Positions 6,648 through 32,845 of a DNA stretch of 64,000 nt are shown here, in pieces. Made by a program: the position numbers and the translations under genes. Within the stretch, counting starts at the first letter, position 1. Each line of letters opens with the position of its first letter. The stretch is from positions 5,995-69,994 of the forward strand of contig JAAVBP010000009.1 of assembly GCA_014803525.1 (NCBI GenBank), in the 5' to 3' direction. Origin of the DNA: a bacterium (lineage in GTDB: Bacteria; Pseudomonadota; Alphaproteobacteria; Rs-D84). The notes under the pieces are model-generated. The model was given only the letters and a program-made list of their open reading frames with translations. It was not told the origin of the DNA and did not search any database.

Positions 6648-6654
6648 TAAATTT

Positions 6655-10594: not shown

Positions 10595-10608
10595 ACCTTG
10601 CCCTTTTT

Positions 10609-11904
10609 TTACTCATCAGTGTCAGCAACCACAACACCTAAATTTTCCGCACTCAGCTGACCCATCGCAGCCAACACCGCAAAATACGCCGCCACCTGAC
10701 CATGGCGGGCCCGCGCCAATGCAACCCGCGAATTCAACAGTTCCTGTTCCGCATTCAGCACATCCAGGACCGTTCTGCGTCCACGCGATTGTTCCGCACG
10801 CGTCCCATCTAACGCCAATTTATTTGCATCAACCGTGGCATTCGCCGCCGTTATCGCATACGTTTGTGCGTCATACGTATTCCACGCCTGATGCAATTGT
10901 TCTATAATTATACGACGCATGTCAATAGCCCTGTTCTGGATCCCGGCAACGGTACTGCGAACCTTGTCCACATTTGCAGAAGCCGTTCCCCGATCATACA
11001 GTGGCAAACTGACATAAACGCCAACGCGGCCATCACGCAATTTATCCGCAATAGGAATGTCATTTATCTGCATTGCAGACGCCTTGACATCAACCGACGG
11101 CAATCTGGACGCACGCGCAACAGTTATGCTTTCACGGGCGGCGGCCTCTTGCGCGGCCAACGCGACTAAGACTGGATGATGTTTTATGGCATATTCCTCT
11201 GCCGAATCCACCGATGCCGGAAACAGGTGCTGAACGCGTGCCAGACTGATATCCGTATATTTTTTTTCATCTTTACCATATATTCTTTTAAATGTCTCTA
11301 TTGCATTATCATATTCGGCACGCGCATTGTTGGTTTGATACTTGGCACTTTCCAGGCGGGCAGACGCCTGGGCCACATCGGTTGATGTCAGCGCCCCAAC
11401 CTGTTGCCGTGCCACACATTGATCATAATATTGCTGCAAAACGCGCTGATTATTTTTGGATAAATCCATTACTTCCTGGGCATTTAATACATTTATATAT
11501 GCATTTATCGCATCTAAAAAGACACTTTGCTGGGTCGCATACAATGACGCCGTACTGGCGGCAAGATTACTTTTGGCACCCTTTATTTTTGCGATTGTTG
11601 AAAATCCTTGGAAAATATTTTGTTGGAACGTTGCACCAAATTCAGTGGGCGTGGTATCAAACGTTTGGTCAAATACTTTGCTGCGCGCCAACCCCGCATT
11701 TGCATTCACCCCCAGGTACGGTCGTGAACCCGTCCGCGCCAAATCCAAGTCTGCATTGGCACCATCTACCGCCGCACGAGATTCCGATATAACCGGATTT
11801 GAATCATATACTGATTGCAATGCAGCATACATATCCGCACGCGCCACGCACGGCATCATCCCAATAATAAATAACCCCAGACAAAATGTTATTTTCATGT
11901 TCAT
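10609..11904 (-). CDS. TolC-family outer-membrane efflux protein
   Basis: Signal peptide, two-repeat alpha/beta architecture, and a typical TolC N-terminus (LQSVYDSNPVISESRAAVDGANADLDLAR). Confidence 0.85.
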   Translation of the reverse strand: MNMKITFCLGLFIIGMMPCVARADMYAALQSVYDSNPVISESRAAVDGANADLDLARTGSRPYLGVNANAGLARSKVFDQTFDTTPTEFGATFQQNIFQGFSTIAKIKGAKSNLAASTASLYATQQSVFLDAINAYINVLNAQEVMDLSKNNQRVLQQYYDQCVARQQVGALTSTDVAQASARLESAKYQTNNARAEYDNAIETFKRIYGKDEKKYTDISLARVQHLFPASVDSAEEYAIKHHPVLVALAAQEAAARESITVARASRLPSVDVKASAMQINDIPIADKLRDGRVGVYVSLPLYDRGTASANVDKVRSTVAGIQNRAIDMRRIIIEQLHQAWNTYDAQTYAITAANATVDANKLALDGTRAEQSRGRRTVLDVLNAEQELLNSRVALARARHGQVAAYFAVLAAMGQLSAENLGVVVADTDE

Positions 11905-11919
11905 CCTCCCATTTCTTTA

Positions 11920-13011
11920 TTACAAAGTTGTTTTAAATTTTTTAATCGCAATTATCCATACGCCAATTCCAACAATCACCATCACAAACGCATGACAGGC
12001 AAAATAAGACCAATCAGGCCCCTTTAAAATAATACTGCGCACCATATAGGAATAATGGCTTAGCGGATTTATCTGGCTGATGTACTGCAAAATCAACGGC
12101 ATATTTTCCGTCGGCACCAAGGCTCCAGATAACATCAAAGCCAAAAACGCAACAATAACAATTCCCAGCAGTGCCTGTTGCTGGTTCCGGGTATATGCAG
12201 CCAACAAGACCGCAACGGCGGACGCCGGCACACAAAATGCCAAAAATCCCAAAACAAACATTAATCCCGAGCCTATAAATGGCAAATGAAATACAATTAA
12301 TCCCATAAATAAAATCGACAGCATTATCAAAAATGACATCAAAATATACGGAACCACCTTGCCCACGATAATATCATACTTTGATATCGGATAGGACATC
12401 AGGGTTTCAATGGTGCCACTTTCTTTTTCTTTGGCAATTGAAATTGTTATCAAAACCAAGATTGCAATAAATACCAATATTGCAATCATCGCCGGCACCA
12501 TAAACCATTTGGTATTTAATTGTGGATTAAACAATATTCGTATATCAAATACAATCGGCTGGGCGGCCGGGGCAATATTTGATTCCAACATAGCATGCGC
12601 GGCAACACCTTGCAGATACGCCTCTATGCTTTGCGCCTTTAAAATGTTCATTGAATCTATTAAAACCTGGACCACGGCACCATCACGCATTCCACCACGG
12701 GTTAGCCCTCCATCCGGCGCAACAATTGCAACATCGGCCGCGCCTGTTTGCACCGCGCGAACTGCATCTTTGTCTGTATCCGGCGCCCGCACAAACCACC
12801 CAGAACCAATGGCATGGTTATAAATTTTTTCTATCATAACGTCATTTGTACCAGAATCCACTGCCAGACGCAGGTTTTGCGCCTCTAACGTAATTGCGCC
12901 AGACAACACAACCAACTGTACCGCTGGCATTATCATAACCGCCGCCATTAATACCGGATCACGCAACAGCGCGATAGTTTCCTTCTTTAAAAAGCCAAAA
13001 AACTTTTTCAT
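11920..13011 (-). CDS. ABC-2 family transporter permease (YbhR/YbhS-like)
   Basis: A large periplasmic loop followed by six C-terminal transmembrane segments. Its start overlaps the upstream gene by 4 nt. Confidence 0.8.
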   Translation of the reverse strand: MKKFFGFLKKETIALLRDPVLMAAVMIMPAVQLVVLSGAITLEAQNLRLAVDSGTNDVMIEKIYNHAIGSGWFVRAPDTDKDAVRAVQTGAADVAIVAPDGGLTRGGMRDGAVVQVLIDSMNILKAQSIEAYLQGVAAHAMLESNIAPAAQPIVFDIRILFNPQLNTKWFMVPAMIAILVFIAILVLITISIAKEKESGTIETLMSYPISKYDIIVGKVVPYILMSFLIMLSILFMGLIVFHLPFIGSGLMFVLGFLAFCVPASAVAVLLAAYTRNQQQALLGIVIVAFLALMLSGALVPTENMPLILQYISQINPLSHYSYMVRSIILKGPDWSYFACHAFVMVIVGIGVWIIAIKKFKTTL

Positions 13012-14126
13012 TCCAATGTCCTTTTAAACCGCATTAGACATAAAACCATCAACACCAATGCCAAAACCACCAACATTACAAAAGGCACCCATAAATCCGC
13101 AATTGAACTGCCCTTTAGGAATTGATCGCGCGTTATATCCATATAAAATCGCGCCGGAAACATCGATGAAAATAATTGATATCCGCGACTCATATATTCC
13201 ACCGGAAAGAAAAATCCAGACAGCACGATGGTTGGCAACAACCCAATTATACACGCAAATTGGATCGCAACCTCTTGCTTGTGCGTTGAAACCGATATAA
13301 ATAACCCTATTTCTAAATAACCCAAGATAAACAGTAATGTCGCCAATATCAATGTTGCATAATTCCCCATAAACGGTACCCCAAACACAACACGCGCAAC
13401 AACAAACACCAAAACAAATCCGACAAAACTTAAAATCGCATATGGTAAAACCTTGCCTATTATTATTTCCAGCGTGGTCGCCGGTGTAGACAACAGCATT
13501 TCCATAGAACCACGTTCCCATTCACGACAGACCGTCAATGTCGTCAACATTATTGCCACCAACGCAATTATTACCGCCGATAATCCCGGCACAGAAAACC
13601 ATCTGGAATTCAATTCAGGGTTAAACAAATATCGTGTTTTAAAAGACAATCCACGCACCGCAATCGGCGCATCCAATATCTTGGCTGTCGCAATGCGATT
13701 AATCGTATTCATGTAATTTGTCACCGCCATAACAGACGAATTATCCGTTCCATCCAACAGGATTTGTACATGCGCCACACCACCACCCAAGACATCTTTT
13801 TCAAATCCGGTTGGAATTGAAACCATGGCACGCGCATTCTCGTCGACAATATCATCAAAACCCTGCTCTGGATTATCTATTGCATACGGATGAAAATAAT
13901 TTGAACTGGCAAAGGTTTCCATCAATCTGCGTGAACTTTCCGTACGATCAGCATCATGATACGCCATATCAATGGATCGGACATTAAATTCTATGGAATT
14001 CCCCAATATCAATACGATTGCCAGCGGTAACATCAGTGCCATCAGCAACGTGAACGGATCACGAAATATATGCTTAAATTCCTTTGAGAAAATAGCACGT
14101 GCCCGGCGCACGGAAAATCGTGTCAT
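13008..14126 (-). CDS. ABC-2 family transporter permease (second copy)
   Basis: Same architecture as 11920..13011. Overlapping start and stop. Confidence 0.8.
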   Translation of the reverse strand: MTRFSVRRARAIFSKEFKHIFRDPFTLLMALMLPLAIVLILGNSIEFNVRSIDMAYHDADRTESSRRLMETFASSNYFHPYAIDNPEQGFDDIVDENARAMVSIPTGFEKDVLGGGVAHVQILLDGTDNSSVMAVTNYMNTINRIATAKILDAPIAVRGLSFKTRYLFNPELNSRWFSVPGLSAVIIALVAIMLTTLTVCREWERGSMEMLLSTPATTLEIIIGKVLPYAILSFVGFVLVFVVARVVFGVPFMGNYATLILATLLFILGYLEIGLFISVSTHKQEVAIQFACIIGLLPTIVLSGFFFPVEYMSRGYQLFSSMFPARFYMDITRDQFLKGSSIADLWVPFVMLVVLALVLMVLCLMRFKRTLE

Positions 14127-15031
14127 CGATTATCACCTTCTACCAGTTTTATAAAAACATCCTCTAACGACGGGGATATTTTCGTAATGTCAAAATCAGC
14201 CTTGTATTTCATCAACGCGCGCGATACATTCACATTAGTATGAAATTTAACATGCCAATTACGACCATACGGCTCACACATTTCCATGTCTTTGTCCGCG
14301 ATTAACATTGCACCACCGCGCGGTGCAAAGTTGTATAACGTATCCCCAAACGCAGTGCGTTTTAATTCCGCGGGCGATGCCGCTGCAACAATCTGTCCCG
14401 CGCGCATCAACGCTATACGGTTACAATTTTCCGCCTCGTCCATATAATGCGTTGTAACAAAGACCGTTTTTCCAGCCGCGGCCAAATCTTGAATCAGCCG
14501 CCAAAATCTGTTCCGCGCAACAGGCGCCACACCGGCGGTCGGTTCATCTAAAAATATAATTTTAGGGTCATGCAATAATGACACACACAATGCAACCTCT
14601 TGCTTTATCCCACCAGGCAAATCCTTGACAACCGTATTTAAATTTTCTGAAAAACCGATAAAATCCAGTAATTTGGCACGATTGGACATGTATACATCAC
14701 GTGATAATCCGCGCATCGCCGCCGCAAAATCAAAGTTTTCCCCAACCGACAGGCCATCATATAACGTAAAACGTTGGGACATATAACCGACCTTTTGCTT
14801 TATTATATTTTCGCGTCCCGGAATAAATTCCGCCCCGTCAATGATAACCTTGCCGCGACTGGCCGGCAACAGTCCACACAACACGCGGATCGTAGTCGTC
14901 TTGCCCGCGCCATTCGCCCCCAAAAATCCAAATATTTCCCCAGGCGCAACACTGAACGAAACATCGCGCACGGCATAAAAGTCCCCAAATATTACAGACA
15001 AATTGCGAACATCAACAATCGGTTCTGTCAT
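14123..15031 (-). CDS. ABC transporter ATP-binding protein
   Basis: Walker A GANGAGKTT, signature motif and Walker B IIFLDEPTAG. Confidence 0.85.
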   Translation of the reverse strand: MTEPIVDVRNLSVIFGDFYAVRDVSFSVAPGEIFGFLGANGAGKTTTIRVLCGLLPASRGKVIIDGAEFIPGRENIIKQKVGYMSQRFTLYDGLSVGENFDFAAAMRGLSRDVYMSNRAKLLDFIGFSENLNTVVKDLPGGIKQEVALCVSLLHDPKIIFLDEPTAGVAPVARNRFWRLIQDLAAAGKTVFVTTHYMDEAENCNRIALMRAGQIVAAASPAELKRTAFGDTLYNFAPRGGAMLIADKDMEMCEPYGRNWHVKFHTNVNVSRALMKYKADFDITKISPSLEDVFIKLVEGDNR

Positions 15032-15756
15032 CGCACACCCCCGCGCACCAAAAATAATTCATCAAAATTACGCACATCATATTGCCGCAGCAAATCAACC
15101 GGCGCCCCCGTATCCAGAACACGCCCCGATTCCATTAACACAACATCACTGCAACGTTCGGCCTCGTCCATGTATGCGGTGGTCAATATTATCAACATAC
15201 CCTTTGATAAAGATGCATGTAACAGGCTCCAAAATTCGCGCCGACTAATTGGATCAACACCGTTTGTAGGCTCGTCCAACAACATAACCCGCGGCGATCG
15301 CAGCAATGCGCACATCAACCCCAGCTTTTTATACATCCCCCCCGACAGATTCCCTGCCGGTCTGTCCAAAAACTTTTCCAATCGCGTCAGTTGTAGCAAC
15401 TCTTGCGTGCGGGATTTAAACTCCGCATCACTGATACCATACAACTGCTTAAAGAAATCTAAATGTTCCGCCACCGACAGATCCGCATACAAACTTTGAC
15501 TTTGTGGCATGTACGCGATATTGCCACTAAAATCTGCAAATTTTGTTTTACGACCATCAACCAGATATTCTATATCACCAGCGCCCGCCTGCATCAAATG
15601 CAACATTATTCGAAACAGCGTTGTTTTTCCTGCACCCGCCGGCCCAATAACACCATACAGACGCCCTGTTTCAAAATGCATCGACACATTATCCAATGCC
15701 CGCACCGACTTGAAATCTTTGATCAGATTCGAAATATTTATTTCAATTTTATTCAT
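15028..15756 (-). CDS. ABC transporter ATP-binding protein
   Basis: Walker A GPAGAGKTT, signature LSGGMYKKLGL and Walker B VMLLDEPTNGVD. Confidence 0.85.
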   Translation of the reverse strand: MNKIEINISNLIKDFKSVRALDNVSMHFETGRLYGVIGPAGAGKTTLFRIMLHLMQAGAGDIEYLVDGRKTKFADFSGNIAYMPQSQSLYADLSVAEHLDFFKQLYGISDAEFKSRTQELLQLTRLEKFLDRPAGNLSGGMYKKLGLMCALLRSPRVMLLDEPTNGVDPISRREFWSLLHASLSKGMLIILTTAYMDEAERCSDVVLMESGRVLDTGAPVDLLRQYDVRNFDELFLVRGGVR

Positions 15757-16555
15757 TTCCCAGACTGCTTTCGATTGTCATCCCGGCCTTTAACGCCAAA
15801 TCTGAATTATCGAAACGAACCTTTATCCCATATACCAGACGTGTTCGTTCTGCCCGCGTCTGAACATTTTTCGGGGTAAATTCTGCCTGTTCATTAATCT
15901 TGATAATTTTACCATGAAATTTACGATCGGGGGCCTCTGGCAATATACCAACCACACTGTCCCCAACACGCAATTGATACAGCATGTTATATGGCACATA
16001 AAAATAAGCCCATATTTCATAAGGATTGGCCAACGACAACAAAACCGTACCTGGGGCTACAACCTCGCCCGGTTCACGAAATCGCGTCACCACAACACCG
16101 TCTGTTGGGGCCGTCACCTGGCACCACCCCAGTTTTAAATCGTTATCTTGTTTATTACGTGTTAAAACATCAAATTCTGCCTGGGACATATGTCCACGTT
16201 CGGTCAATGCACGCGCACGATCAAAATCATTATCTATCTGCGTCGCCAATATTTTATATGTATCACAACTAAGTTCCATTAAGGTTTGCCCACGCACAAC
16301 CATATCACCTTCGGCAACATATATATCTGAGATATCAGATGCCACACGCGCAGTCATCATGACCTTGGTGGTTTCCAGCGTCCCCGCATACATAAACGGC
16401 TTTGCCGACATAAAATATTTTATTCCAACCGCAATCGCACACACCAACGCAACCGCGGCAACAATATACGCCATTCGACGTGCTTTCTTTTTATTGGCAA
16501 TATTTTCATCCGTATACTGCACGGACGTTACAGTATCCTTTTTTCCCTTTGGCAT
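15749..16555 (-). CDS. HlyD-family membrane-fusion (periplasmic adaptor) protein
   Basis: N-terminal transmembrane anchor, coiled-coil hairpin and beta-barrel domain. It is first in an operon with the four ABC genes and TolC. Confidence 0.8.
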   Translation of the reverse strand: MPKGKKDTVTSVQYTDENIANKKKARRMAYIVAAVALVCAIAVGIKYFMSAKPFMYAGTLETTKVMMTARVASDISDIYVAEGDMVVRGQTLMELSCDTYKILATQIDNDFDRARALTERGHMSQAEFDVLTRNKQDNDLKLGWCQVTAPTDGVVVTRFREPGEVVAPGTVLLSLANPYEIWAYFYVPYNMLYQLRVGDSVVGILPEAPDRKFHGKIIKINEQAEFTPKNVQTRAERTRLVYGIKVRFDNSDLALKAGMTIESSLGNE

Positions 16556-16882
16556 TTCTCTCTCCTGGGTATTTATTAAAATACAGAATGTTTTTCCATT
16601 TTAATAAAAGCCACATATATTTCAAGCAAAATTCACACAAAAATAACAGAGAATCCGAGTTAGCAATTTATTTCTATTACAAGGATACACGCAGGCTCGC
16701 ACCGCAACCGAGAGATCTGTTCAAACAGGACAAACAACAGTTTGCGTTCGAAAACAAGTAGGTGAGACAAATGCAATGTAGTCGAACCGTTACGGTTTCC
16801 ACGCAGACGCGAAGCGTCGAGAGAATCATGGGGCCCGTCCTAACATAAAATTAAAACCGCCCATACGGCGGTTTTAATTTTA

Positions 16883-16895
16883 TGGTCGGGGCGAC
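16883..16895 (+). other. 13-nt copy of the tRNA-Pro 3-prime end (TGGTCGGGGCGAC), att-like direct repeat
   Basis: Identical to 26714..26726, the CCA end plus acceptor stem of tRNA-Pro on the plus strand. Confidence 0.5.
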
Positions 16896-17084
16896 TATGA
16901 GTAGTTGAGGACAAGCCCAAAGGGCGCCGTTCGAAAAGTCACGAATGCCGCGCAGTCTCGGCGGGCATAGCACGACGGACGAGCGACCTGTTCGAACACA
17001 AACCAACGATTTGTTGTTCGTATTCAGGATTGTCACAACCAAATTTAATAAAACGGGCACCACTTGGTGCCCGTTTTATTAAAC

Positions 17085-17093
17085 CTGGTCGGG
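17085..17093 (+). other. Second, shorter copy of the tRNA-Pro 3-prime end (TGGTCGGGG) directly 5-prime of an X repeat
   Basis: Same orientation as the tRNA-Pro end. Preceded by the hairpin AATAAAACGGGCACCACTTGGTGCCCGTTTTATT. Confidence 0.4.
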
Positions 17094-17448
17094 GTGAAAA
17101 CAAGTAGGCAAGACAAGCAAAGCGCAGTCTAGCCGTCACGGTTTCCCCGCAGGCACGAATGTGCCGAGGGACACGTTCGAACATAGCAAACGACAGTTTG
17201 CGTTCGAATCATGGATCCGTCCTAACATAAAATTAAAACCGCTCATGCGGCGGTTTGAATTTTATGGTCGGTCAGTATTATGTTGCTACGAAACGAATAC
17301 AGGAACCCCATTTTCAGCGATTTACAGCGAATTTCGCACATCGCAACCACACAAAAACGCCATATTTCCGCACTTTTTATCCAAAAATCCAGTAAAATAA
17401 CAGGGAATTTATTATGTTATATCAAAAAAACAACCTATCTCTACAGAC

Positions 17449-20400
17449 TTATTTCAACTGGCGCAAATATTGTTTTATAAATGCTAGATTGTTCCTAAAA
17501 CCACCTAAACCGCCATCAGCATGAGTCTGTGGAGCATAGGGGAAATACTTGTTAATATCATTAATATCTATAGACTTAAAATCATTCAATGTCGCAACAA
17601 TACCTTGGCCTCCCAAACTTTCGCGTCCCATTGTTTCCAAGACCATTTCTGTATTTCTTAAATCACCAACTTCAGAATCCAAAATATTCGCAATTTGTTT
17701 TAATTCAACAGAATCATAGTGGCGAATAATATCATCACCGCCTTTATTGAACCAACCGTCGCGCCCAATACCGCCAAAGAATTCCCATTTACCGGTCGGA
17801 ACATTTGTTTTACCTGCGGTTCCCGTGGATATATAGAACGGTAATTTGATATCGCCAACTTTTACCATACATATTGCGCGCCCATGTATTGCGCCAACGT
17901 CACTAAGGCTTTCAATATATACTGGACGACCATGTATATCCCCCAAAGTACGACCAATTTTACTTTCCAAACTAGCGAGATTCGGATTTGAAATTGTGCG
18001 TGTTAAGGTACGGCCTCTGATGTTTAAGCCTTGTGCAATGGCATCATCACGCGTCATTGCAATTACGATATGGGGCGATGATTCACCATAACCAAGGGTA
18101 TCTAAGGCGACCGCAAAATCTCCTTTCGCAAAAGTAATATTTGCCATAGTTTCTGCAGTAGACGCTCTCATCGGGGACGATATATATACATTTTGATCTG
18201 CATATGTCTTATTTATGGGACCTGCCCTGGCCAAACGATTTTCAATAATCTGTCGATTGGGGGATGGCGCATTATTTGCGGGTTTGACTGTTGTGGCTGT
18301 TGCAGATTTAGTCGCACCAGCCGAATATTTCGGCTTCTGTATAAATGGGAGCAAGCTTTCATAGCTTGCTGAATCTTCTACTATTGCAACCATATATTGA
18401 TTACCGCGTTGTATTTTCCCAGCATAGATATTCTGTGCCTGCAGACGCGCAACTATTTTATCTGCCTCCTCTTCGGATGCGACGGCTTTACGGAACTGTC
18501 TGACACCAGCAGAATTTTGGTTGGCCGCAGATTCAAATAAATCATTCAGCCCCGTACGCGCACTCATATTATCAAGAGAGGTGTTTGTAGCACGGTTAGC
18601 AGATTTTAATCCGCTTAGATAATTTGTTATATCATCAGTGTTGCTTATAAACTGATAATTGCGCCCAGGTGTAATTTTCATATATCGATTAACCTCCTCA
18701 ACACTTATGGAACGAAAGTTTTCTATTACGGCCACTGGGCCACGCCCCCCCAAACTCTGACGCCCCAAGGTTTCCAAAACATATTCCGTATTTCGCAAAT
18801 CGCCAATCTTGTCATCTAACATTGTAGCAATTTGTTTTAATTCCTCAGACCCATAATGATTTAAAATATCGTCCAAATATCCCTTATTAAACCAACCAGA
18901 TTTCGGGTCAATTCCGGCAAAGAACTCCCATTTTCCTGTTGGAATATCCGTCTTGCCTGCTGTACCCGTGGATATATAGAATGGAATTTTTCGGTCACCA
19001 ACCTTTACCATGCATATCGGACGACCACTTATTACCCCAACATCATTAAGACTTTCAATATATACTGGCGTGCCATGTATATCACCTAATGTCTGACCAA
19101 TTTTACTATTCAATGTGGTCAGATTAGAATTGGAAATTTTACGCACTAATTTGTTGCCATTGACAGCTAGCCCTTGCGCTTCGGCATCAGCACGAGTCAT
19201 TGCGATTACTATCTCGTCCGCATTACTTGCTCCCTCTGTATTCAAACTTACCGCAAAATCCCCTTTAGCCCGAATGTGTCGTACAGCATCACTCGCATCA
19301 ACATTGGAGGCCGGCGCAGATATATATACATTATGTCCTTCATACACTTTGTTGACAGGACCAAGTTCTGCAATCTCGTCCTTAATAAATTCACGACTCA
19401 AAACGACGGGGTTCTCCGCCTTGCGTGCTTCTTCTGCTTTGCGAGCTTCTTCAGCTTTACGAGCTTCCTCGGCCTTGCGTGCTTCTTCAGCTTTACGCGC
19501 CTCTTCTGCTTTGCGTGCCTCTTCAGCTTTACGAGCTTCCTCGGCCTTGCGTGCTTCTTCAGCTTTACGCGCTTCTTCAGCTTTGCGAGCCTCTTCAGCT
19601 TTGCGAGCCTCTTCAGCTTTGCGAGCTTCCTCGGCCTTGCGTGCTTCTTCTGCTTTGCGTGCTTCTTCTGCTTTACGAGCTTCCTCGGCCTTGCGTGCTT
19701 CTTCTGCTTTACGAGCTTCCTCGGCCTTGCGTGCTTCTTCAGCTTTGCGAGCCTCTTCTGCTTTACGAGCATCGGTGGCTACTTCAGACTCACGATGTGC
19801 CTTGGATACATCATCAGCCTGGCGTTCCGCAACAACGGCCGTTTCAGCATTATTAACAGCATTCGCATTATCAGCGACATCGCCTGCACGGGATGCCGCG
19901 CGGACGGTATCATCCGCGTGGGATGCAGCACCGGCCGCACCGCGTCCCCCATTGCGCAATGCTGCGGTGGCACGCGGCAGTTTCTTAACACCCCAGCTGA
20001 CCACGCTCTTTATAATACTGGCCAATTGCAGTGTTAATCCAACCGCACGCCAAATCTCTTCGGGCTGCCATGATGACATTCCCTTATTATTTGCACCGGT
20101 AGATGTGCCGTTTTTCATTAAATCTTTATAAAACCGTGAATTTGGTTGTATCAACCCAGCCAAACGTGCCAATTCGTTATCAATTCCATTTACAACCGCA
20201 TCTGGCAAATCATTTGCCAAATCAGCCATACGCTGTAAATCACGTTTCAGCATACTTTCCGCGCACGATGCATCGTTGCACTTTCTGCTCTCTGCCAGAA
20301 ATTCATCACCGGCATTTTGCATACGGCGCGTAGCTTCAAATTCTATTGCGGCACCGGCTGTTTCCACTGCCAGTAACGCCAATGCCGGCGCGCCAGCACC

Positions 20401-22371
20401 CCCGGTTGCCACAGTCAACACCACGCCAGCCGTCGCACCTGCTGCAATAATCAACAATTGTTCGTTGTTTTGTAAATCTTTTGCATCCTCAGCACTGGGC
20501 ATACGACAAACCTCGCCATCCCAATATATAGTTTTACATTTTGCACATGTTGCAGCATTTGTTGCCATTAACCTGTTGCACGCCTCCTTGCCCAGGTACA
20601 TACATTCGCGACCGTTATACTGGCCCCCTAGCACCTTGCAATCTATATTTTGCAGACTGCCTTTGTGCAGAGCGTTCTCAAATTCCGACATATCGTCAAA
20701 TACAAAGTCAACCTCTTGATTGCCATTAATAGTGCAACGCAACACATCATCCGTGGACCCCTTGACACTATGCCCTTCAATCTTTGACATTTGACGTGGG
20801 TTTTGAACACAAGAAAAGCTTTTTACGCCACTTTTAACGTTCTGTACATATTTACGCAAACTGCCCTCTATTGTTGGGACCGCCTGAAACTGGATAGCAC
20901 CGGAATAAAAATAATACGAATCAATGCCCGGGATTTCTTTGATTTTATTCTTGCCGCCGCTGTCACCGCCAATTGTAACAAAGACACACTTTCCATTTTC
21001 CCACTTTACGTTATACCCAAGCTTTTTAGCGGTTTTTGCGAAGTTACCATTACACGTTGCAGCAGATATTTTTGTACACTCATTTATCCCCACGCCGCCA
21101 TATATTCCATGGCAAATTGAATACATTACCGATGTCTGAATCATTCCATCAAAAGATTCCTTCACATCATCGAATTTAAATTCGTAATAAACCACCCCGT
21201 CTGTTGTAGCGCATTTTATATAATCGTCATTCCAACTGGTTCGACGATCATTTTGACATACAATTGTATTGCCGTGTTTTACCCGCGCATATTCCTGGGC
21301 TAGTGCAATCGCCTGCATTATCTGAATATTTGTGCTGGAAAAGGCATCAGTTATGCAATATTCTTTCTTGCCGGTTTTGCCTTTGTCTGCACCACAAACC
21401 GCGCGATACATATTACTGTGCTGAAATTCGTCTGTTCCTGGATTACAGACACACTGGTTCTTTGAATGCTGAATAATACTGCCTGTATGTTTACAGTTAT
21501 TTGTATTTGCGTGTTGCTTGCAAAACGCAGTACACAACGCTAATGTATTATTTTGCGATGTTTCCGGATGCATACTGGTGGGACATGCAACGTTTTTGGC
21601 AGCACGCGCCATAGATTCCTTGGCTGCATCAACCTCTGTCGTTTGGGCGTTACAGATACATTCTTTGGTACTGTGCCGCATAACAACATTTGTCACCGCA
21701 CAATTTTCGCGTGTACCCTTGGCCTTGCAAAAGTCGAGACATTTAGCAGATGTATTATTGTCTTTGTTTTCTTTGTGTATGCTGCGCGCACAAAGTGGTG
21801 TTCCAACGGGTATAGGCGTATTGCACGCGCCACCACGCAAGTCATAATTTCCTTTGCACACCAACGCCATACAGGTACAACTGTAACTTTCGTTACGTTG
21901 AAATACAACCTCGCCCATGGCGATATGCGAAGAAGTACATATATCCCCAACACGGGTTTTATCTGTAATAGAGCTTAATTTGTTCGGATTTTTACCATTT
22001 TCATCCAATCCAGGACAAAATCCACCAAGCGCATTTTCATCTACTTCATTGCCGGTATTATTCAACAGTGCCGTCACAAAATTCCGACAGGTTTCAAAGC
22101 CGTTTGCGTGATATGTATTCAGGCCACCCGCACGGCATATTGCAAACAGGTCTGCGATTGATACGGCACCAGTTTCCGGATTCATCAATGTAATATACTT
22201 TTGCGCCATTGCTATCTGACGTTTATCATCAGTAATAAAATCCGGTATCGTAGCCGCCAGATTTTCAGCCGTAAATATATATTTTTGTTCGGCATCCGCA
22301 TAAGTCTTGGGCGCACCAAATGCCGACACTATCATAATCAGTGATAAAAACGCCAGGGCTATTTTCTTCAT
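17449..22371 (-). CDS. Giant secreted/surface multidomain protein (1640 aa) with a Cys-rich N-terminal part, a Gly/Ala-rich hydrophobic segment, about 20 KAEEAR repeats and a tandemly duplicated ~280-aa C-terminal domain
   Basis: Signal peptide MKKIALAFLSLIMIVSAFGAPKTYA. Two ~55-aa Cys modules (C..FCK.....NC...CNxxT.E). Hydrophobic LLIIAAGATAGVVLTVATGGAGAPALALLAV. C-terminal domain A (~aa 1000..1290) and domain B (~aa 1400..1646) share GDFAV, IVIAMTRxDA.AQGL, GDIHGxPVYIESL, ICMVKVGD, PFYISTGTAGKT, PTGKWEFF and GDLRNTE.VLET. The start is set to MKK at 22371; the track ORF starts 6 codons upstream. Confidence 0.8.
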   Translation of the reverse strand: MKKIALAFLSLIMIVSAFGAPKTYADAEQKYIFTAENLAATIPDFITDDKRQIAMAQKYITLMNPETGAVSIADLFAICRAGGLNTYHANGFETCRNFVTALLNNTGNEVDENALGGFCPGLDENGKNPNKLSSITDKTRVGDICTSSHIAMGEVVFQRNESYSCTCMALVCKGNYDLRGGACNTPIPVGTPLCARSIHKENKDNNTSAKCLDFCKAKGTRENCAVTNVVMRHSTKECICNAQTTEVDAAKESMARAAKNVACPTSMHPETSQNNTLALCTAFCKQHANTNNCKHTGSIIQHSKNQCVCNPGTDEFQHSNMYRAVCGADKGKTGKKEYCITDAFSSTNIQIMQAIALAQEYARVKHGNTIVCQNDRRTSWNDDYIKCATTDGVVYYEFKFDDVKESFDGMIQTSVMYSICHGIYGGVGINECTKISAATCNGNFAKTAKKLGYNVKWENGKCVFVTIGGDSGGKNKIKEIPGIDSYYFYSGAIQFQAVPTIEGSLRKYVQNVKSGVKSFSCVQNPRQMSKIEGHSVKGSTDDVLRCTINGNQEVDFVFDDMSEFENALHKGSLQNIDCKVLGGQYNGRECMYLGKEACNRLMATNAATCAKCKTIYWDGEVCRMPSAEDAKDLQNNEQLLIIAAGATAGVVLTVATGGAGAPALALLAVETAGAAIEFEATRRMQNAGDEFLAESRKCNDASCAESMLKRDLQRMADLANDLPDAVVNGIDNELARLAGLIQPNSRFYKDLMKNGTSTGANNKGMSSWQPEEIWRAVGLTLQLASIIKSVVSWGVKKLPRATAALRNGGRGAAGAASHADDTVRAASRAGDVADNANAVNNAETAVVAERQADDVSKAHRESEVATDARKAEEARKAEEARKAEEARKAEEARKAEEARKAEEARKAEEARKAEEARKAEEARKAEEARKAEEARKAEEARKAEEARKAEEARKAEEARKAEEARKAEEARKAEEARKAEEARKAENPVVLSREFIKDEIAELGPVNKVYEGHNVYISAPASNVDASDAVRHIRAKGDFAVSLNTEGASNADEIVIAMTRADAEAQGLAVNGNKLVRKISNSNLTTLNSKIGQTLGDIHGTPVYIESLNDVGVISGRPICMVKVGDRKIPFYISTGTAGKTDIPTGKWEFFAGIDPKSGWFNKGYLDDILNHYGSEELKQIATMLDDKIGDLRNTEYVLETLGRQSLGGRGPVAVIENFRSISVEEVNRYMKITPGRNYQFISNTDDITNYLSGLKSANRATNTSLDNMSARTGLNDLFESAANQNSAGVRQFRKAVASEEEADKIVARLQAQNIYAGKIQRGNQYMVAIVEDSASYESLLPFIQKPKYSAGATKSATATTVKPANNAPSPNRQIIENRLARAGPINKTYADQNVYISSPMRASTAETMANITFAKGDFAVALDTLGYGESSPHIVIAMTRDDAIAQGLNIRGRTLTRTISNPNLASLESKIGRTLGDIHGRPVYIESLSDVGAIHGRAICMVKVGDIKLPFYISTGTAGKTNVPTGKWEFFGGIGRDGWFNKGGDDIIRHYDSVELKQIANILDSEVGDLRNTEMVLETMGRESLGGQGIVATLNDFKSIDINDINKYFPYAPQTHADGGLGGFRNNLAFIKQYLRQLK
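19407..19771 (-). repeat. Coding 18-nt tandem repeat, about 20 copies, translating to (KAEEAR)n
   Basis: GCTTTGCGAGCTTCTTCA-type units with synonymous wobble variation inside the giant ORF. The plus-strand ORFs 19115..20131 and 19174..20037 are antisense artefacts of this repeat. Confidence 0.9.
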
Positions 22372-23324
22372 TTCAATACCCCCGTGCATTTTTCAGCGAT
22401 GGTTGCCACTTTCTTTATCGCGCTGATTTGCGTTGCATTAAATACCGTCGCCGTCGCGGATGCCACCGTGGTTGCACCAGACAGGACATTTGCCGCCGTG
22501 TTTAGATTTTTTTCTTTCTGTTTGCCCGCATCCGTATTATCGTTGCGCGTTTTATCCGTATTTGCGATTGCCGATGTTACCGTACCCGCCGCACCGGTTG
22601 TTGCGCCGACAATCGATGATATCATCGCACCTTTGGCCCGATTGTTTATCTTTGACACATCAACATAATCGTATTCAGCGCAGGCAGCGATAATCTCTTG
22701 CGCCTCTGATACGTCTTCGCCATTGACGCGTGCCTGCATCATAGACTGGCGCAGCTGACTTACCGACGCTTTGCAATCATCAATTTGCGCCTTTAAATCC
22801 TTATCGACCTTATTATTTCCGGCGATAATCGCGCCCGCCACATTGGTCGCAGTACTGCCCGCAATCAGGCCAGTTCGCCAATTACCCAGACGCTTTGATT
22901 GTTTGGTCAGTTTTTCAATTTCATCTTCGATGTCCCGCTTTTCGTCTTTGTTGGCGTCATAGTAATCTTGCATCCGGGCCAATATTTCCGCCCGATTGAT
23001 TTCCGGTGTCGGATTTCCGCGTGTTATTTCTTTTAATTTTTCCAACTCTTTTTCAAGATTTGCAATTTGTTTATCTTTGTTCACCTTTACAATACCAACA
23101 ACGGTTGCACCCGCACCGGCCGCCGTACCAACCGCAGTCACCGCCGTGTTTATTCCAGCCATCTTTTTCAAATCGGCTAATTCATCATCAATGCCAACAC
23201 ATGCAGTATATGTCGCCCGCAACGCATCATCCAATGACAAAATATCAGCATGCGCAACAAGCGGCATAAAACAACACAATAAAGCAACGAAACGCTCTCT
23301 CATTTTTCCCTGGCCGACTGGCAC
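22368..23324 (-). CDS. Secreted coiled-coil protein with four Gly/Ala/Thr-rich hydrophobic segments
   Basis: Signal peptide MRERFVALLCCFMPLVAHA. Segments AVTAVGTAAGAGATVVGIV, TGLIAGSTATNVAGAIIAG, ISSIVGATTGAAGTVTSAIA and LSGATTVASATATV alternate with charged coiled coils. It lies immediately upstream of the giant gene and its stop overlaps the giant gene's start. Confidence 0.6.
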   Translation of the reverse strand: MPVGQGKMRERFVALLCCFMPLVAHADILSLDDALRATYTACVGIDDELADLKKMAGINTAVTAVGTAAGAGATVVGIVKVNKDKQIANLEKELEKLKEITRGNPTPEINRAEILARMQDYYDANKDEKRDIEDEIEKLTKQSKRLGNWRTGLIAGSTATNVAGAIIAGNNKVDKDLKAQIDDCKASVSQLRQSMMQARVNGEDVSEAQEIIAACAEYDYVDVSKINNRAKGAMISSIVGATTGAAGTVTSAIANTDKTRNDNTDAGKQKEKNLNTAANVLSGATTVASATATVFNATQISAIKKVATIAEKCTGVLK

Positions 23325-23406
23325 ATCTATACGAAGGGATTGTTGTAATATTAAATGGGTTGATTTTCCGACTTTTTTTGTTTATAATTTTGGAACAATA
23401 AAAGGT

Positions 23407-24003
23407 TCATATTTTTGAAACAAGGAACCTGGTTATCGTCGGTGGACTGACCCGAATTTTACGTGCAATTTCCCGCTTTGATACACCTGCCGCATACATA
23501 TCCAGAATTAAATTCTCGTGTCCATCTAATATATGGGTCGGATTACGCCCGCCCGCCGGTCGCCCCAGTTTTACACCCCGCATTTGCAGGACGGATAGTG
23601 CCTCCTTGGTTCGCTGGGCGATTAAATTTCTCTCTATTTCTGCGGACAGGCCGAATGCAAACGCTAAAACCTTTGACTGAATATTGTCCCCCAATTCATA
23701 CCCATCTTTGACCGTGTACAGGCGTGCGCCAATTTTCATACAATGTTCCAAAATCCGCATAATCATGAACATCTTTCGCCCAAGACGCGACAGTTCGCTG
23801 CATATTATCACGTCACCCGGTTGCAATCGGCGCAGCATACCACCTAGCGCACGTTCCTCTGGCTCTTTTGTCCCAGATATGCCGGAATCTTCTATATATT
23901 TATCTATGCAAATTCCCAGTTTCGCGGCTTTCGCCTCTATCCCTAGTTTTTGATTTGCGCAGTCTTGTTTGTCGGTTGAAACCCGAATATAGCCATATAT
24001 CAT
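23407..24003 (-). CDS. Small serine recombinase (resolvase/invertase, Hin/TnpR type)
   Basis: MIYGYIRVSTDKQ catalytic serine motif. SELSRLGRKMFMIMRILEHC. C-terminal HTH. About 60% identical to the 57479..58114 protein. Confidence 0.85.
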   Translation of the reverse strand: MIYGYIRVSTDKQDCANQKLGIEAKAAKLGICIDKYIEDSGISGTKEPEERALGGMLRRLQPGDVIICSELSRLGRKMFMIMRILEHCMKIGARLYTVKDGYELGDNIQSKVLAFAFGLSAEIERNLIAQRTKEALSVLQMRGVKLGRPAGGRNPTHILDGHENLILDMYAAGVSKREIARKIRVSPPTITRFLVSKI

Positions 24004-24449
24004 TCAGTGCTCCTTTTATTATCAAATCCAAAGAAATGGTTGCCGGACATTTTGTGGCCGCATATTTCTGTCGCAATCGCCGACAATGTTGAATAAGGCT
24101 TGCCGTTATATGTAAACCTATCATCTGCCAGAACGCGCACGACATGTTCCGTACCACGGAACTTTTTCACTAATTCAGTTCCTGGCTTTAAATGATATTT
24201 AACCTTGTGCGAGCGTCCGCTATATAACTCCGGATCCTTGGCATATTTGTACAAGCGGCTCAAATGTCGTGATTCTATTTTGTATCCCATTTGTTCGCAT
24301 TGAATTTTGTGCCATAAAGGTTTCATCTGGGGCTTGCCGCCAGTAAAGTAATGTCCCCATAATTGCGTTATCTTTTCCTTAGGCATCGCCCGTAAATCCG
24401 CCATATTTTTAGGCAATTCGCCGCAATATTTTCTTAATGCCATAGCCAT
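24000..24449 (-). CDS. Hypothetical protein translationally coupled to the resolvase (possibly a DUF2924-type recombinase partner)
   Basis: 149 aa. Its stop overlaps the resolvase start (ATGA). Ribosome-binding site AAAAGGAC. The DUF assignment is from memory of the recombinase-adjacent family, not verified. Confidence 0.45.
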   Translation of the reverse strand: MAMALRKYCGELPKNMADLRAMPKEKITQLWGHYFTGGKPQMKPLWHKIQCEQMGYKIESRHLSRLYKYAKDPELYSGRSHKVKYHLKPGTELVKKFRGTEHVVRVLADDRFTYNGKPYSTLSAIATEICGHKMSGNHFFGFDNKRSTE

Positions 24450-24559
24450 GTCCTTTTTGTTGCAATTACTGCTTACGTCGCCCCATAAGTCAAGTTAATA
24501 AACCACTGGACTTCTCTCGCTTTGTAAGCACTAATGCCAGCACCCAAGAGGAAAAAAAC

Positions 24560-26191
24560 ATGCAAATTGTTAACTGTGCCGTATATGTTAGAAAATCCAG
24601 CGAACGCGGATTAGACCAAGAATTCAACAGTCTGGACAACCAGGAATTGGCCTGTAAATCATATATCGCATCCCAAACATTCCAAGGATGGCAGTATTTC
24701 AAAACATATAGCGATGGCGGTATCTCTGGCGGGACAATGGCGCGACCGGGGCTGCAAGAAATGCTGAGTGATATAAAAACAGGCAAGATTCAATGCGTAT
24801 TGGTGTATAAAATTGACCGCCTGTCACGCAGCATTTATGACTTTAAGAGCATGATGAAAAAGGATTTTGAACCACATAACTGCAATCTGGTCAGCATTAC
24901 ACAGAGTTTTGACACAAACACAGCCATGGGGAAATTGACACTGAACATGCTACTGTCGTTTGCAGAGTTTGAACGAGAGGTTGCCAGTGAACGCGTCCGT
25001 GATAAAATGCGCGCAACTAAATCAAAAGGCCTGTGGGTCGGTGGGGTGCCGCCGCTGGGCTATGACGTACAATTTGGAAAATTGGTTCCAAATGAAACCG
25101 AGGTTCCATTGGTCAAAACCATATTTGAAACGTATCTAAACAGCACCGGTATACTGGACTGCCGCAATCGTATTGCCGCACTTGGCATTCGGGGCAAAGC
25201 CTGGCAAACCCGAAAAGGCGAAATGCGTGGTGGCCGGGAAATGACCGCGAATATCATTGAACGGGTTTTGAAAAATCAAATTTACCTGGGCAAACTGCCC
25301 AACAAATCAACCGGCGAAGTCTTTGATGGTAAACACCCAGCCATAATCGACAAAACGCTGTTTGACGCAGTCCAAGCTAAAATCCAAGCAAACAACAATC
25401 ACCCAGGTTCCGGATATCGCCTTGGGACGGCATTATTACACAACAAAATACAGACCGCAGACGGAACCATCCTAAAGAATAAATCCGGCCAGAAAAACTA
25501 TAACTCACACCGGCGGTACAGATACTATTACGGTGGCGGCGTATCCCTGCCTATGGGGGATATTGACGCCATTGTAATCGATACAATAAAAAAGTTCCTG
25601 GATTCAGACCTGGGGTGTTTTAATGATGAGAAACGACTATGCTTCAAACAAACCGCGTTTTCACCAGAGCTTATCGCCCCAATGATTGCCAAGATTGTGT
25701 ATTATTGCCAAAAACTGGTAATATTTATAAACATTGCAGACCTAGGATACCTGACCCAATTCCGCAACACAGGTCCTATAAATACAAATAACCATCCAAT
25801 GCCGTGTGCTATATCGGCCGATGGAAAATACGCCATAATTGAGACAGACGTTATTATATCCAGTCGAACATGCATAAACCATCGAAACAGTGGCGGCAGT
25901 CGGGATTTATTAACCAAAACCGAAAACGCAACAATGTTAATCAAGGCCCTGGGATACGCATGGAAATACAAGCAACAATACGAAAGCGGAACCGGAATTC
26001 GTGAACTGGCCGAAACAGAAAAACGCGACCAGCGCACGATTTACAAATACTTAAATCTGGCATACCTGTCGCCACGGATTATCAATGATATCATGGACAG
26101 CAAAATCCCACCCCACATCAACCTGCAGACCTTGTTCCAGATTGCAAGTAAGTATGATAATTTCGCGGAACAGGAACGGGAGTTTTATTAA
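24560..26191 (+). CDS. Large serine recombinase
   Basis: Resolvase-type N-terminal domain (VYVRKSSERGLDQEFNSLDNQ, DRLSRS). Recombinase domain GLWVGGVPPLGYDV. Long C-terminal extension. GAGGAAAAAAAC ribosome-binding site. Divergent from the resolvase pair. Confidence 0.85.
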   Translation: MQIVNCAVYVRKSSERGLDQEFNSLDNQELACKSYIASQTFQGWQYFKTYSDGGISGGTMARPGLQEMLSDIKTGKIQCVLVYKIDRLSRSIYDFKSMMKKDFEPHNCNLVSITQSFDTNTAMGKLTLNMLLSFAEFEREVASERVRDKMRATKSKGLWVGGVPPLGYDVQFGKLVPNETEVPLVKTIFETYLNSTGILDCRNRIAALGIRGKAWQTRKGEMRGGREMTANIIERVLKNQIYLGKLPNKSTGEVFDGKHPAIIDKTLFDAVQAKIQANNNHPGSGYRLGTALLHNKIQTADGTILKNKSGQKNYNSHRRYRYYYGGGVSLPMGDIDAIVIDTIKKFLDSDLGCFNDEKRLCFKQTAFSPELIAPMIAKIVYYCQKLVIFINIADLGYLTQFRNTGPINTNNHPMPCAISADGKYAIIETDVIISSRTCINHRNSGGSRDLLTKTENATMLIKALGYAWKYKQQYESGTGIRELAETEKRDQRTIYKYLNLAYLSPRIINDIMDSKIPPHINLQTLFQIASKYDNFAEQEREFY

Positions 26192-26496
26192 CTCTTGAGA
26201 TTGGACTTTATAAAATCAATAACACGCGTTTTATATTCGTCATCACCATTTAAAACACTGATATTTAGCCGTGTATCAAAATTTGTCTCAGCCGAGCCTT
26301 CTTGCACATCAACAACCCTTATTACAACCTCTGGTTTCACCCCTGTTTCATCCTGGTAAGTCAACGCCAACTGCTTGGCCCTTTCATTAAGTTTGTTCTC
26401 TATTATTGACGGATTTTGCTTTATTTTTTGTTTTGCTGCATTCAGTATATCTTTTTCTATTTTTTTTGAATCAAATTTTGTTGTAACTTTAAACAT
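26188..26496 (-). CDS. Hypothetical small protein (102 aa), convergent with and overlapping the large serine recombinase
   Basis: AGGAGAAAAC ribosome-binding site 6 nt before ATG (MFKVTTKFDS). Lys/Glu-rich. No recognised domain. Confidence 0.45.
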   Translation of the reverse strand: MFKVTTKFDSKKIEKDILNAAKQKIKQNPSIIENKLNERAKQLALTYQDETGVKPEVVIRVVDVQEGSAETNFDTRLNISVLNGDDEYKTRVIDFIKSNLKS

Positions 26497-26713
26497 GTTT
26501 TCTCCTATATTTATCACGGTACATATAGGTATTTGAGCTAACATTTTCAACCCCAATTGACTCCGCGAAAATGGGCATTGTATACCTTCTGGTATATTAT
26601 GGGCAGATTTGCGTATATTCGGTGAATACCAGAGTCAATGCATTTCGCAAATGCCCGCGTTTTGCGGCGGACACATAAAAAAAGCCGCGACAATGCGCGA
26701 CCTTTCTAATTAC

Positions 26714-26790
26714 TGGTCGGGGCGACATGATTCGAACATGCGACATCTTGCTCCCAAAGCAAGCACTCTACCAGACTGAGCTACGCCCCG
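26714..26790 (-). tRNA. tRNA-Pro (anticodon TGG), CCA encoded
   Basis: Minus-strand cloverleaf: CGGGGCG acceptor, D arm, anticodon stem CTTGC/GCAAG with loop TTTGGGA, T arm GCATG-TTCGAAT-CATGT, acceptor CGCCCCG, then A and CCA. Confidence 0.9.
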
Positions 26791-26887
26791 AAACAGAACC
26801 GATTATAACAAGTTTTTTCTAAAATGCAAATATTTAGCGCGATTTTATGCTTGTCTATAAATATAAAACTGTACTATCATATAATCG

Positions 26888-32725: not shown

Positions 32726-32750
32726 ACGGAATGGAGGAGCCGAAGGGGAT

Positions 32751-32829
32751 GAAAACAAGTAGGCAAGACAAGCGATAGCGTAGTCGAGCCGTCACGGTTT
32801 CCCCACAGGCACGCAAGTGCCGAGGGACA
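32751..32829 (+). repeat. Third copy of the X repeat element, inserted at the ssb 3-prime end with a 13-bp duplication
   Basis: GAAAACAAGTAGGCAAGACAAGCGATAGCGTAGTCGAGCCGTCACGGTTTCCCCACAGGCACGCAAGTGCCGAGGGACA. Flanked by GACATTCCGTTTT (32711..32723) and GACATTCCGTTCT (32826..32838). Confidence 0.6.
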
Positions 32830-32845
32830 TTCCGTTCTAAAAAAA

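Follow-up and report, generated by a model that had tools for sequence, protein, structure and literature searches.

A putative serine recombinase island with variable cargo at the 3' end of tRNA-Pro in an alphaproteobacterial genome

The staphylococcal cassette chromosomes (SCC, SCCmec) are compact cargo islands with one or more large serine recombinase genes and no transfer genes. They sit at the 3' end of the housekeeping gene rlmH and are flanked by short direct repeats. Their recombinases form the pair CcrA/CcrB, their cargo varies freely and includes resistance genes, and tandem arrays and remnants accumulate at the site. Serine integrases in general are prized for genome engineering, and their natural targets are usually protein-coding genes. 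Another group of cargo islands, the tycheposons of Prochlorococcus, adjoins tRNA genes, among them Pro(tgg) and Arg(tct) (10.1101/2020.12.28.424599). Tycheposons are additive islands with partial tRNA remnants, and many carry a primase and a helicase; 910 of 937 use tyrosine recombinases, and a minority encode a large serine recombinase (10.1101/2020.12.28.424599). The present analysis deals with a 64-kb stretch of the contig JAAVBP010000009.1, called the window below. Positions 17265-26720 of the window most likely represent a cargo island which was integrated by a large serine recombinase (LSR) at the extreme 3' end of a tRNA-Pro(UGG) gene and which carries no transfer genes. This reading rests on the anatomy of the locus, the conservation of a family of such islands, one pair of empty and occupied sites in relatives, and a deviating tetranucleotide composition. 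The element appears closest in logic to the SCC-type cassettes and to the LSR-bearing minority of tycheposons. It is set apart from both by its tRNA-end target, by a constant partner protein of the DUF2924 family, and by sister islands rich in defence genes.

The likeness to SCC, SCCmec and other cassette chromosomes, such as that of Enterococcus, is one of logic, drawn by description. In contrast to SCC, the island targets a tRNA 3' end and not rlmH, and it encodes one LSR, a DUF2924 protein and a small resolvase instead of CcrA/CcrB. Moreover, its presumed host is an uncultured alphaproteobacterium with a reduced genome, and the cargo of its relatives consists of defence genes rather than resistance genes. 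With the tycheposons, the island shares, again by description, the carriage of cargo, the position next to a tRNA gene and, as regards their minority, the LSR. It differs from them in the lack of a replication module, in the host phylum and in the recombinase module. The phage serine integrases (TP901-1, Bxb1, phiC31, SPbeta SprA) have the catalytic and recombinase domains in common with the LSR, and the 7-bp core of the island falls within their 5-8 bp. Nevertheless, these enzymes typically insert in protein-coding genes and disrupt them (PMC8092301), whereas here the tRNA stays intact, no zinc ribbon was detected in the LSR, and the element is not a phage. Classical tRNA islands of tyrosine integrases resemble the element in the insertion at the tRNA 3' end, the integrase gene beside the tRNA, the displaced copy at the far end, and tandem accretion. 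However, no tyrosine recombinase is encoded here, and the core measures 7 bp instead of extending tens of bp into the T-loop or anticodon loop. The longer tRNA-end repeats near the island (13-25 nt) belong to other small units. Common cores are 5-8 bp long in serine integrase (Int-S) systems and 25-76 bp long for tyrosine integrases at tRNAs, and Int-S phages insert within open reading frames (ORFs) (PMC8092301). A core of 7 bp is in keeping with a serine integrase, and a tRNA end is not the usual target of such enzymes.

The integration target is the tRNA-Pro(UGG) gene at 26714..26790 on the minus strand, found by ARAGORN and by the Rfam tRNA model (65.6 bits), with a promoter-like site upstream (26830-26802, minus strand). 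Its last 7 nt, CCGACCA, comprise the final three bases of the acceptor stem, the discriminator and CCA. On the plus strand they read TGGTCGG (26714-26720) and form the putative attL core. The same 7-mer at 17265..17271 on the plus strand, recognised from the repeat families D4 and I5 and from alignments, is the corresponding attR core, i.e., the displaced last 7 nt of tRNA-Pro. The island between these cores spans 9.4 kb. Its ends were aligned with those of related elements, the tRNA-proximal 200 bp of six elements in alignment A2 and the distal 200 bp of five (the window, L003, L082, L094 and L093) in alignment A1. Mean identity is 76% for the proximal ends and 70% for the distal ends, and in both alignments the conservation runs exactly up to TGGTCGG. 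Alignment A2 is invariant across TGGTCGGGGCGA; the conserved proximal end (26557..26713) contains the motifs TTGACTCCGCG...CATTGTATAC and GAATACCAGAGTCAATG, and the core runs on into the tRNA (GGCGA...). A G+C hairpin with a T-run, read from the sequence of this end, would be a replacement terminator for tRNA-Pro. On the distal side, the conserved end (17272..17414) starts with TCAGTATT directly after the core, which runs on into the element as TC(N)GTA..., followed by repeated motifs of the ACAG(C/G)GAAT and ACAGGGAAT types. Because the conservation of both ends stops at TGGTCGG, the island of the window is delimited as 17265-26720. An old terminator hairpin, H1' (17217-17264), precedes the attR core, with a terminator-like site at 17256-17236 on the minus strand.

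A previous sequence-only reading had described a tRNA-Pro-anchored insertion of ~9.6 kb, bounded by a 13-mer and a 9-mer copied from the tRNA 3' end. An exact search, with ARAGORN and Rfam, agrees with it on the 13-mer. This sequence, TGGTCGGGGCGAC, is the tRNA-Pro(TGG) 3' end on the plus strand and has exactly two copies in the 64 kb, at 16883-16895 and 26714-26726, in the same orientation (0.03 expected; 0 of 100 shuffles reach two). The additional copy of the 9-mer TGGTCGGGG exists as well, at 17086-17094, one position further than reported (17085..17093); its three matches against 0.5 expected are weakly significant taken alone. Both copies lie outside the island, and the true boundary is the 7-bp core at 17265-17271. 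Insertion at the tRNA 3' end is upheld by the comparative evidence, and the length and the boundary are corrected, the former to 9.4 kb. It had also been envisaged that the repeats could be a scattered family independent of tRNA-Pro. This is partly the case for the 13-mer and 9-mer copies, whose repeat units also occur behind tRNA-Arg and ssb in the window and behind other tRNAs in metagenomes, and does not apply to the island. The 7-mer copy at 17265-17271, which the sequence-only reading did not mention, stands behind a hairpin with 95% identity to the one preceding 16883 (repeat family D4). On the plus strand, every tRNA-end copy is preceded by such a terminator-like hairpin, which in the sense of the tRNA gives the order tRNA end, then terminator.

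An unoccupied site, which the sequence-only reading had proposed to look for in related genomes, was found in one relative. In L005, which belongs to a related species, tRNA-Pro is directly followed by a hairpin and an S unit (one of the small repeat units described below), without recombinase genes. The blastn comparison of L005 with L082 gives three collinear blocks: the end of an autotransporter gene (94% identity), the S unit with hairpin and TGGTCGGG (96%), and tRNA-Pro with the right flank (86%). Nothing in L005 corresponds to positions 1298-10589 of L082 (9292 bp), and TGGTCGGG, 8 nt long, is common to both adjoining blocks. L005 is thus empty and L082 occupied, which is the attB versus attL/attR pattern expected of site-specific insertion. 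It was also considered that tRNA-Pro could be part of the island, with which it moves in L003 and L092; this was ruled out, as L005 keeps the tRNA without the island.

Composition was another proposed check, and tetranucleotide usage deviates although GC content does not. Compared with the remainder of the window, the island has a tetranucleotide distance of 0.176, which falls to 0.157 when an 18-nt repeat array in the cargo is left out. Windows of the same size elsewhere in the stretch served as background and reach 0.113 +/- 0.012, with a maximum of 0.137.

The conservation of the family was studied in relatives of the LSR, which has roughly 8000 homologues. The rho gene of the window is 92-95% identical to that of gut metagenome-assembled genomes (MAGs) labelled Candidatus Enterousia and 'uncultured Rickettsiales', and on this basis the host is taken to be an uncultured gut alphaproteobacterium. 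Ca. Enterousia is reportedly mentioned in a paper on reduced-genome bacterial lineages of the farm-animal gut. Genomic contexts were retrieved for LSR homologues at 95, 81, 80, 73 and 61% identity. Eight further loci, corresponding to six distinct islands (L082/83/84/87, L090, L092, L093, L094), carry the LSR-DUF2924 module beside tRNA-Pro(tgg). In all eight (LSR identity 61-95%), the tRNA gene lies 0.2-1.3 kb past the LSR stop codon on the opposite strand, in the same geometry. A small resolvase is present in five of the six distinct sister islands and missing from the relative at 61% identity. At most sister loci, the neighbourhood of a 348-aa gene, an arginase-like gene and rho comes next. 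In the window, a TolC/ABC-2/ABC-ATPase/HlyD operon forms the left flank, and a 328-aa ORF, an arginase-like gene, rho, ssb and enolase form the right flank; an exact-protein look-up of the HlyD flank gene gave no match and thus no direct synteny via that gene.

The cargo is unrelated from island to island, while the recombinase module and both ends are conserved. The L082 group carries an Eco57I-like methyltransferase (MTase), ResIII/T5orf172 and HNH genes, L090 an N6_N4 MTase and Cas9, and L092 Cas9-Cas1-Cas2 and Eco57I/ResIII. HaeIII restriction-modification, AAA_21 and KAP NTPase genes are found in L094, an ABC transporter in L093, and SocA/Panacea and ResIII/Eco57I in L003. The Cas9 gene of L090 occupies positions 7-3084, Cas9 with Cas1 and Cas2 occupies 1-3963 of L092, and a Cas13a-like gene lies beside the remote relative L154 (1-845). 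Judging from gene content, complete CRISPR-Cas loci appear to ride on minimal serine recombinase islands. Many LSR homologues are located on contigs of 2-4 kb. One of them, L001 (a contig of 2893 bp from SRR11425431), is 100% identical to window positions 23324-26216 and consists of the three-gene recombinase module alone. Such short module contigs probably reflect assembly breakage at variable cargo in mixed strains and not an independent 3-kb transposon.

The association with tRNA ends extends to more remote relatives. The LSR homologues L154 and L155 (52-53% identity), one in a Desulfovibrionaceae MAG and one in an alphaproteobacterial MAG, lie directly at the 3' end of tRNA-Ser(gga), with the geometry seen at tRNA-Pro. 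In both, DUF2924 lies directly upstream in the same operon, no small resolvase is present, and the end motif ATACCAGAGTCA is kept ~75 nt from the tRNA-Ser junction. One of these tRNA-Ser relatives carries defence cargo (restriction-modification, GmrSD and the Cas13a-like gene). A second copy of the tRNA-Ser end was not found within 10 kb in L154 or L155. Given their position at tRNA-Ser, their DUF2924 partner and the shared ATACCAGAGTCA, tRNA-end targeting is, on present comparisons, a family trait that follows the LSR/DUF2924 pair.

The recombinase module of the window consists of three genes. The LSR itself (24560..26191, plus strand) is the presumed integrase, with Pfam, PHROG and TP901-1 domain matches. 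It comprises 543 aa, within the ~450-700 aa expected of serine integrases, and its ORF is intact. The catalytic domain (PF00239, E=1.7e-35) covers residues 7-158 and includes a YVRKSS motif at residues 9-14, and the recombinase domain (PF07508, E=1.7e-12) covers residues 180-277. The protein matches the integrase family phrog_95 (E=2.8e-91) and the catalytic domain of the TP901-1 integrase (E=1.9e-23), and its C-terminal 90 aa match phrog_14161, annotated as 'recombinase'. Divergent from the LSR gene lies that of the DUF2924 protein (149 aa, 24000..24449, minus strand; PF11149, E=9.6e-23, with a weak RAMA match). A relationship between DUF2924 and the DNA-binding RAMA domain has been described (PMC11342252). 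The third gene (23407..24003, minus strand) encodes a small serine recombinase of 198 aa of the resolvase/invertase type with a C-terminal helix-turn-helix (PF00239, E=4.7e-31, and HTH_38). It matches the DNA invertase family phrog_125 (E=2.2e-40), has the ~190-aa architecture of the Hin/Tn3 type, and is translationally coupled to DUF2924, with an overlap of 4 nt. Cognate res or hix sites for it were not identified. As the small recombinase is absent from L093, L154 and L155, it is dispensable for the association with tRNA. DUF2924, in contrast, accompanies the LSR at all loci examined, also in L154 and L155. For an accessory or directionality factor, this constant association points to DUF2924 as the foremost candidate, on its own or together with the small recombinase. 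The gene list of the sequence-only reading is confirmed for the large serine recombinase, the Hin-type resolvase with its coupled small ORF, and the secreted coiled-coil and 1646-aa proteins. The third recombinase-family protein it had counted is the DNA-binding DUF2924.

The catalytic part of the LSR, strand exchange within the 7 bp, the function proposed for DUF2924 and the present-day mobility of the island are inferred from these observations. The 543-aa LSR would pair attB, the tRNA-Pro end, with attP, the two conserved island ends joined around the core (...GCGCGACCTTTCTAATTAC-TGGTCGG-TCAGTATTATGTTGC...), and strand exchange would take place inside the 7-bp common core. Before integration, the empty-site junction would read ...GGTTTGAATTTTA-TGGTCGGGGCGACATGATTCG.... 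The tRNA-Pro would be kept intact, the island would supply a new terminator hairpin just downstream of it, and the old terminator with its 7-bp tRNA-end copy would be displaced by 9.4 kb. Two cargo slots are exchanged freely among family members, and the recombination module and the ends are conserved. The 13-mer and 9-mer copies at 16.9-17.1 kb stem from earlier small insertions at the same site and not from this integration. Within 17265-26720, Pfam and PHROG gave no primase, helicase or polymerase. The PHROG matches of the island are limited to integrase/invertase families and one family of unknown function each for DUF2924 and the 1646-aa protein, with no structural or conjugation genes. 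Since replication, packaging and conjugation genes are missing, transfer from cell to cell would depend on another vehicle.

Several points weigh against integration by the LSR as described. The 7-mer TGGTCGG is common by chance, with seven copies on the plus strand and five on the minus strand (12 in the window); as it is not rare on its own, its significance comes from the comparison with relatives. The GC content of the island (0.441 vs. 0.458) remains in the background range and is not deviant. The C-terminal half of the LSR has no Pfam zinc-ribbon (E<=0.01) or coiled-coil domain, and no CxxC pairs are visible. For the arrangement of flanks seen in the window, where the HlyD operon adjoins the distal end, the search for an empty site was negative. 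The tRNA and the island of L082 are separated by a small Z unit that brings a tRNA-end copy of its own, which leaves the exact insertion history there ambiguous. No excised circle or attP junction was seen, and within the Enterousia-like genomes examined the module occurs at no second site. Dyad symmetry of the inferred attP is not above shuffled controls. A local TAC...GTA pair is visible there by eye, yet the overall symmetry is no better than in shuffles, and the claim of a dyad was dropped.

Among the other explanations, a fixed hypervariable spot survives best, although it seems unlikely. Here, an old immobile module would reside by tRNA-Pro, and its cargo would be swapped by homologous recombination between module, ends and tRNA. 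All related genomes examined do have the module at this one locus only, many metagenome contigs end at its edges (e.g., L001), as conserved anchors with variable cargo would give, and the attP junction was not found. On the other hand, L005 keeps the site and misses the whole island. The conserved ends reach exactly to the 7-bp tRNA-end repeat on both sides, which homologous exchange does not require. Furthermore, the remote LSR relatives at tRNA-Ser argue that the family has moved between targets, and the LSR ORF is intact. Altogether less credible, and in our opinion very unlikely, is a decayed prophage, phage satellite or conjugative element with the serine recombinase as surviving integrase. 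The LSR does have the phage integrase family phrog_95 as its best match, and in the vicinity of one remote relative, L155, there are a fragment of a terminase large subunit and a ParB-MTase. DUF2924-recombinase pairs were noted in phage WO regions of Wolbachia (PMC10299305). However, capsid, tail, terminase, relaxase and type IV secretion genes are absent from the island of the window and from all six sister islands (0/6). No close relative of the LSR was found among 2.9 million IMG/VR contigs either, so a phage origin is unsupported. The same compact design, module plus cargo, recurs in different species, as would be expected of a functional minimal element rather than of independent decay. 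Least tenable, and hardly worth retaining, is the idea that the tRNA-end repeats are by-products of the small S, Y and Z units and the 9.4 kb ordinary chromosome without any insertion: the 13-mer and the 9-mer do lie inside small units, and such units stand behind tRNA-Arg, ssb and other tRNAs without any island, but the core at 17265 is followed by a conserved end common to four other elements with different cargo, L005 and L082 show a clean 9.3-kb presence/absence, the tetranucleotide composition of the island deviates from the rest of the window, and the conserved ends (A1, A2) together with the L005/L082 pair largely refute it.

Outside the LSR island, an older array of small repeat units occupies positions 16700..17264 (repeat families D3, D4, D8, D9, I2 and I3). 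The mosaic of short repeats that had been suspected at 16.7..17.3 kb is borne out by a repeat search and by blastn, with matches to window positions 32750-32829 and to L092, L082 and L003. From left to right, the array contains an X-like segment (16708-16752), a Y copy (16750-16825), the hairpin H1 (16835-16882), the 13-mer tRNA-end copy (16883-16895), a Z/W unit (16896-17037), the hairpin H2 (17038-17085), the 9-mer tRNA-end copy (17086-17094), a second Y copy (17094-17175), an X unit (17170-17216) and the hairpin H1' (17217-17264). The repeated insertion and decay at this site that the sequence-only reading had proposed is reasonable in view of L094, which has a second element in tandem. There, within positions 139-1800, a gene for a 501-aa tyrosine integrase lies just past the distal junction of the LSR island, beside a tRNA-end copy TGGTCGGGAC at 1726. 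L094 is a tandem accretion of two different element types at tRNA-Pro.

The small units share copies of their target's 3' end. In the window, an S unit (6648-6814) is located downstream of tRNA-Arg(tct) (6571-6647) and shares 79% identity with its counterpart behind tRNA-Pro in L005 (8212-8390). It consists, in this order, of a terminator hairpin, an inverted T-arm/acceptor copy, a structured body of ~85 nt and the direct 3'-end copy AATCCTGCAGGGGCACCCA. A pattern scan of metagenomes yielded ~20 further S units behind tRNA-Arg(tct), Pro(tgg), Pro(ggg) and Ser(gga). Their layout is constant: the target 3' end, often a hairpin, an inverted copy of the end, a body of 70-110 nt and a direct copy. 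The direct copy is the last 14-25 nt of the target and matches the cognate gene in every case. The S body forms a three-way junction, in which 8 of 21 pairs have compensatory changes (15 copies); this covariation is argued to reflect selection on structure. ARAGORN called a 'tRNA-Lys' antisense to an S unit, which was rejected, as its acceptor stem is mismatched and it reuses the inverted T-arm copy. Past the tRNA-Arg S unit, at 6990-7081 on the plus strand, Rfam places a match to sRNA-Xcc1 (RF02221) that, with 37.8 bits (E=4.3e-5, 541 nt searched), stays below the gathering score of 53.

Other units behave in a similar way. At the 3' end of ssb (window 32708-32846), a Y unit of ~110 nt directly follows the stop codon, with a duplication of the final 14-15 nt of ssb (ACATTCCGTT[T/C]TAA) and an inverted target copy at the start of the unit. 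The second Y copy of the array (17094-17175) is 91% identical to positions 32750-32829, just past ssb. At the ssb site, L003 has two tandem E units of 103 nt (667-894), and L005, L082, L084, L087 and L094 are empty. The Z unit carries its own CAT(A/T)GTCGCCCCGACCA even in L082, where the T-stem of tRNA-Pro differs; this mismatch shows that the target copy travels with the unit. Against Rfam, at gathering and permissive thresholds, the mosaic and the units gave only two tRNAs and chance-level matches. The arrangement of the units fits a Campbell-type integration of small circles with a palindromic att site, or they may be scars of other integrative elements.

Taken together, the islands and the small units allow a broader and rather speculative proposal, which we hold to be possible and not probable. 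An LSR-DUF2924 clade would have specialised on the terminal nucleotides of tRNAs (Pro(UGG), Ser(GGA)) and serve as minimal defence shuttles, including complete type II CRISPR-Cas, in gut Alphaproteobacteria with reduced genomes. The S, Y, E and Z units would be previously undescribed structured miniature insertion elements with a palindromic copy of the target 3' end, integrated in Campbell style and possibly mobilised in trans by such recombinases. The catalogue of att sites would be widened by a clade that inserts at the last 7 nt of tRNA genes and leaves them undamaged, and the constant DUF2924/RAMA-type partner of this clade is a testable candidate for an accessory or directionality factor. 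The family points to an exchange of restriction-modification systems, Cas9 loci and large surface proteins among uncultured gut Alphaproteobacteria with reduced genomes, via a three-gene module at a single hotspot. As for the small repeats that copy tRNA and ssb ends, target-matching arms would be mechanistically unusual if the units are mobile.

The cargo of the island in the window consists of two large genes and a small one. The 1646-aa protein (17449..22389, minus strand) has a signal-like N-terminus, a Cys-rich region with 36 Cys in the first 700 aa, and one hydrophobic segment (aa 645-667). It contains ~28 ARKAEE repeats encoded by a near-perfect 18-nt tandem array (19343-19863), which explains a local GC peak of 0.52. 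A Pfam match to 'Plasmodium_HRP' is spurious and caused by this array. Two copies of a ~260-aa domain without a recognisable fold are also present. This domain has 10 database homologues in all, every one unannotated and in an ordinary chromosomal context, so it is no marker of mobility. The 318-aa protein (22368..23324, minus strand) shows, in its translation, a signal-like N-terminus, coiled-coil stretches and Gly/Ala-rich segments; its only Pfam match is a sub-threshold one to DUF6944, and neither PADLOC nor PHROG assigns a function. The second slot, between the LSR gene and the tRNA, is variable and holds here an ORF of 122 aa (26188..26556, minus strand, GC 0.336) without Pfam, PHROG or PADLOC match. 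In sister islands, the same slot contains unrelated ORFs (183 aa; DUF4238; 259 and 84 aa; 300 aa). None of the three proteins matches a known defence family in PADLOC. An effector or host-interaction role of the cargo is neither supported nor refuted by the Pfam, PADLOC and fold comparisons, which gave no match, while sister islands carry defence genes. As far as the evidence goes, the 1646-aa and 318-aa proteins would be exported surface proteins.

The surroundings of the tRNA-Pro site have been rearranged as well. In two comparisons, the orientation of the block of scar array, island and tRNA-Pro is reversed with respect to one flank. In the comparison of L003 (1-6260) with L082, the flank with the 402-aa, arginase and rho genes meets the scar side. 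In that of L092 (12700-19200) with window positions 10600-16900, the HlyD/ABC/TolC operon is located on the 5' side of the tRNA in L092 and on the scar side in the window. The flips may stem from site-specific inversion, e.g., by the Hin-like recombinase, or from ordinary rearrangement. Elsewhere in the window, Pfam matches nothing in an ORF of 1757 aa (34514-39787, plus strand), whose 3' end shows homology to the autotransporter-type gene next to the tRNA-Pro site of L005 and L082. In this genome, the ORF lies on the far side of rho and enolase, which indicates a local rearrangement.

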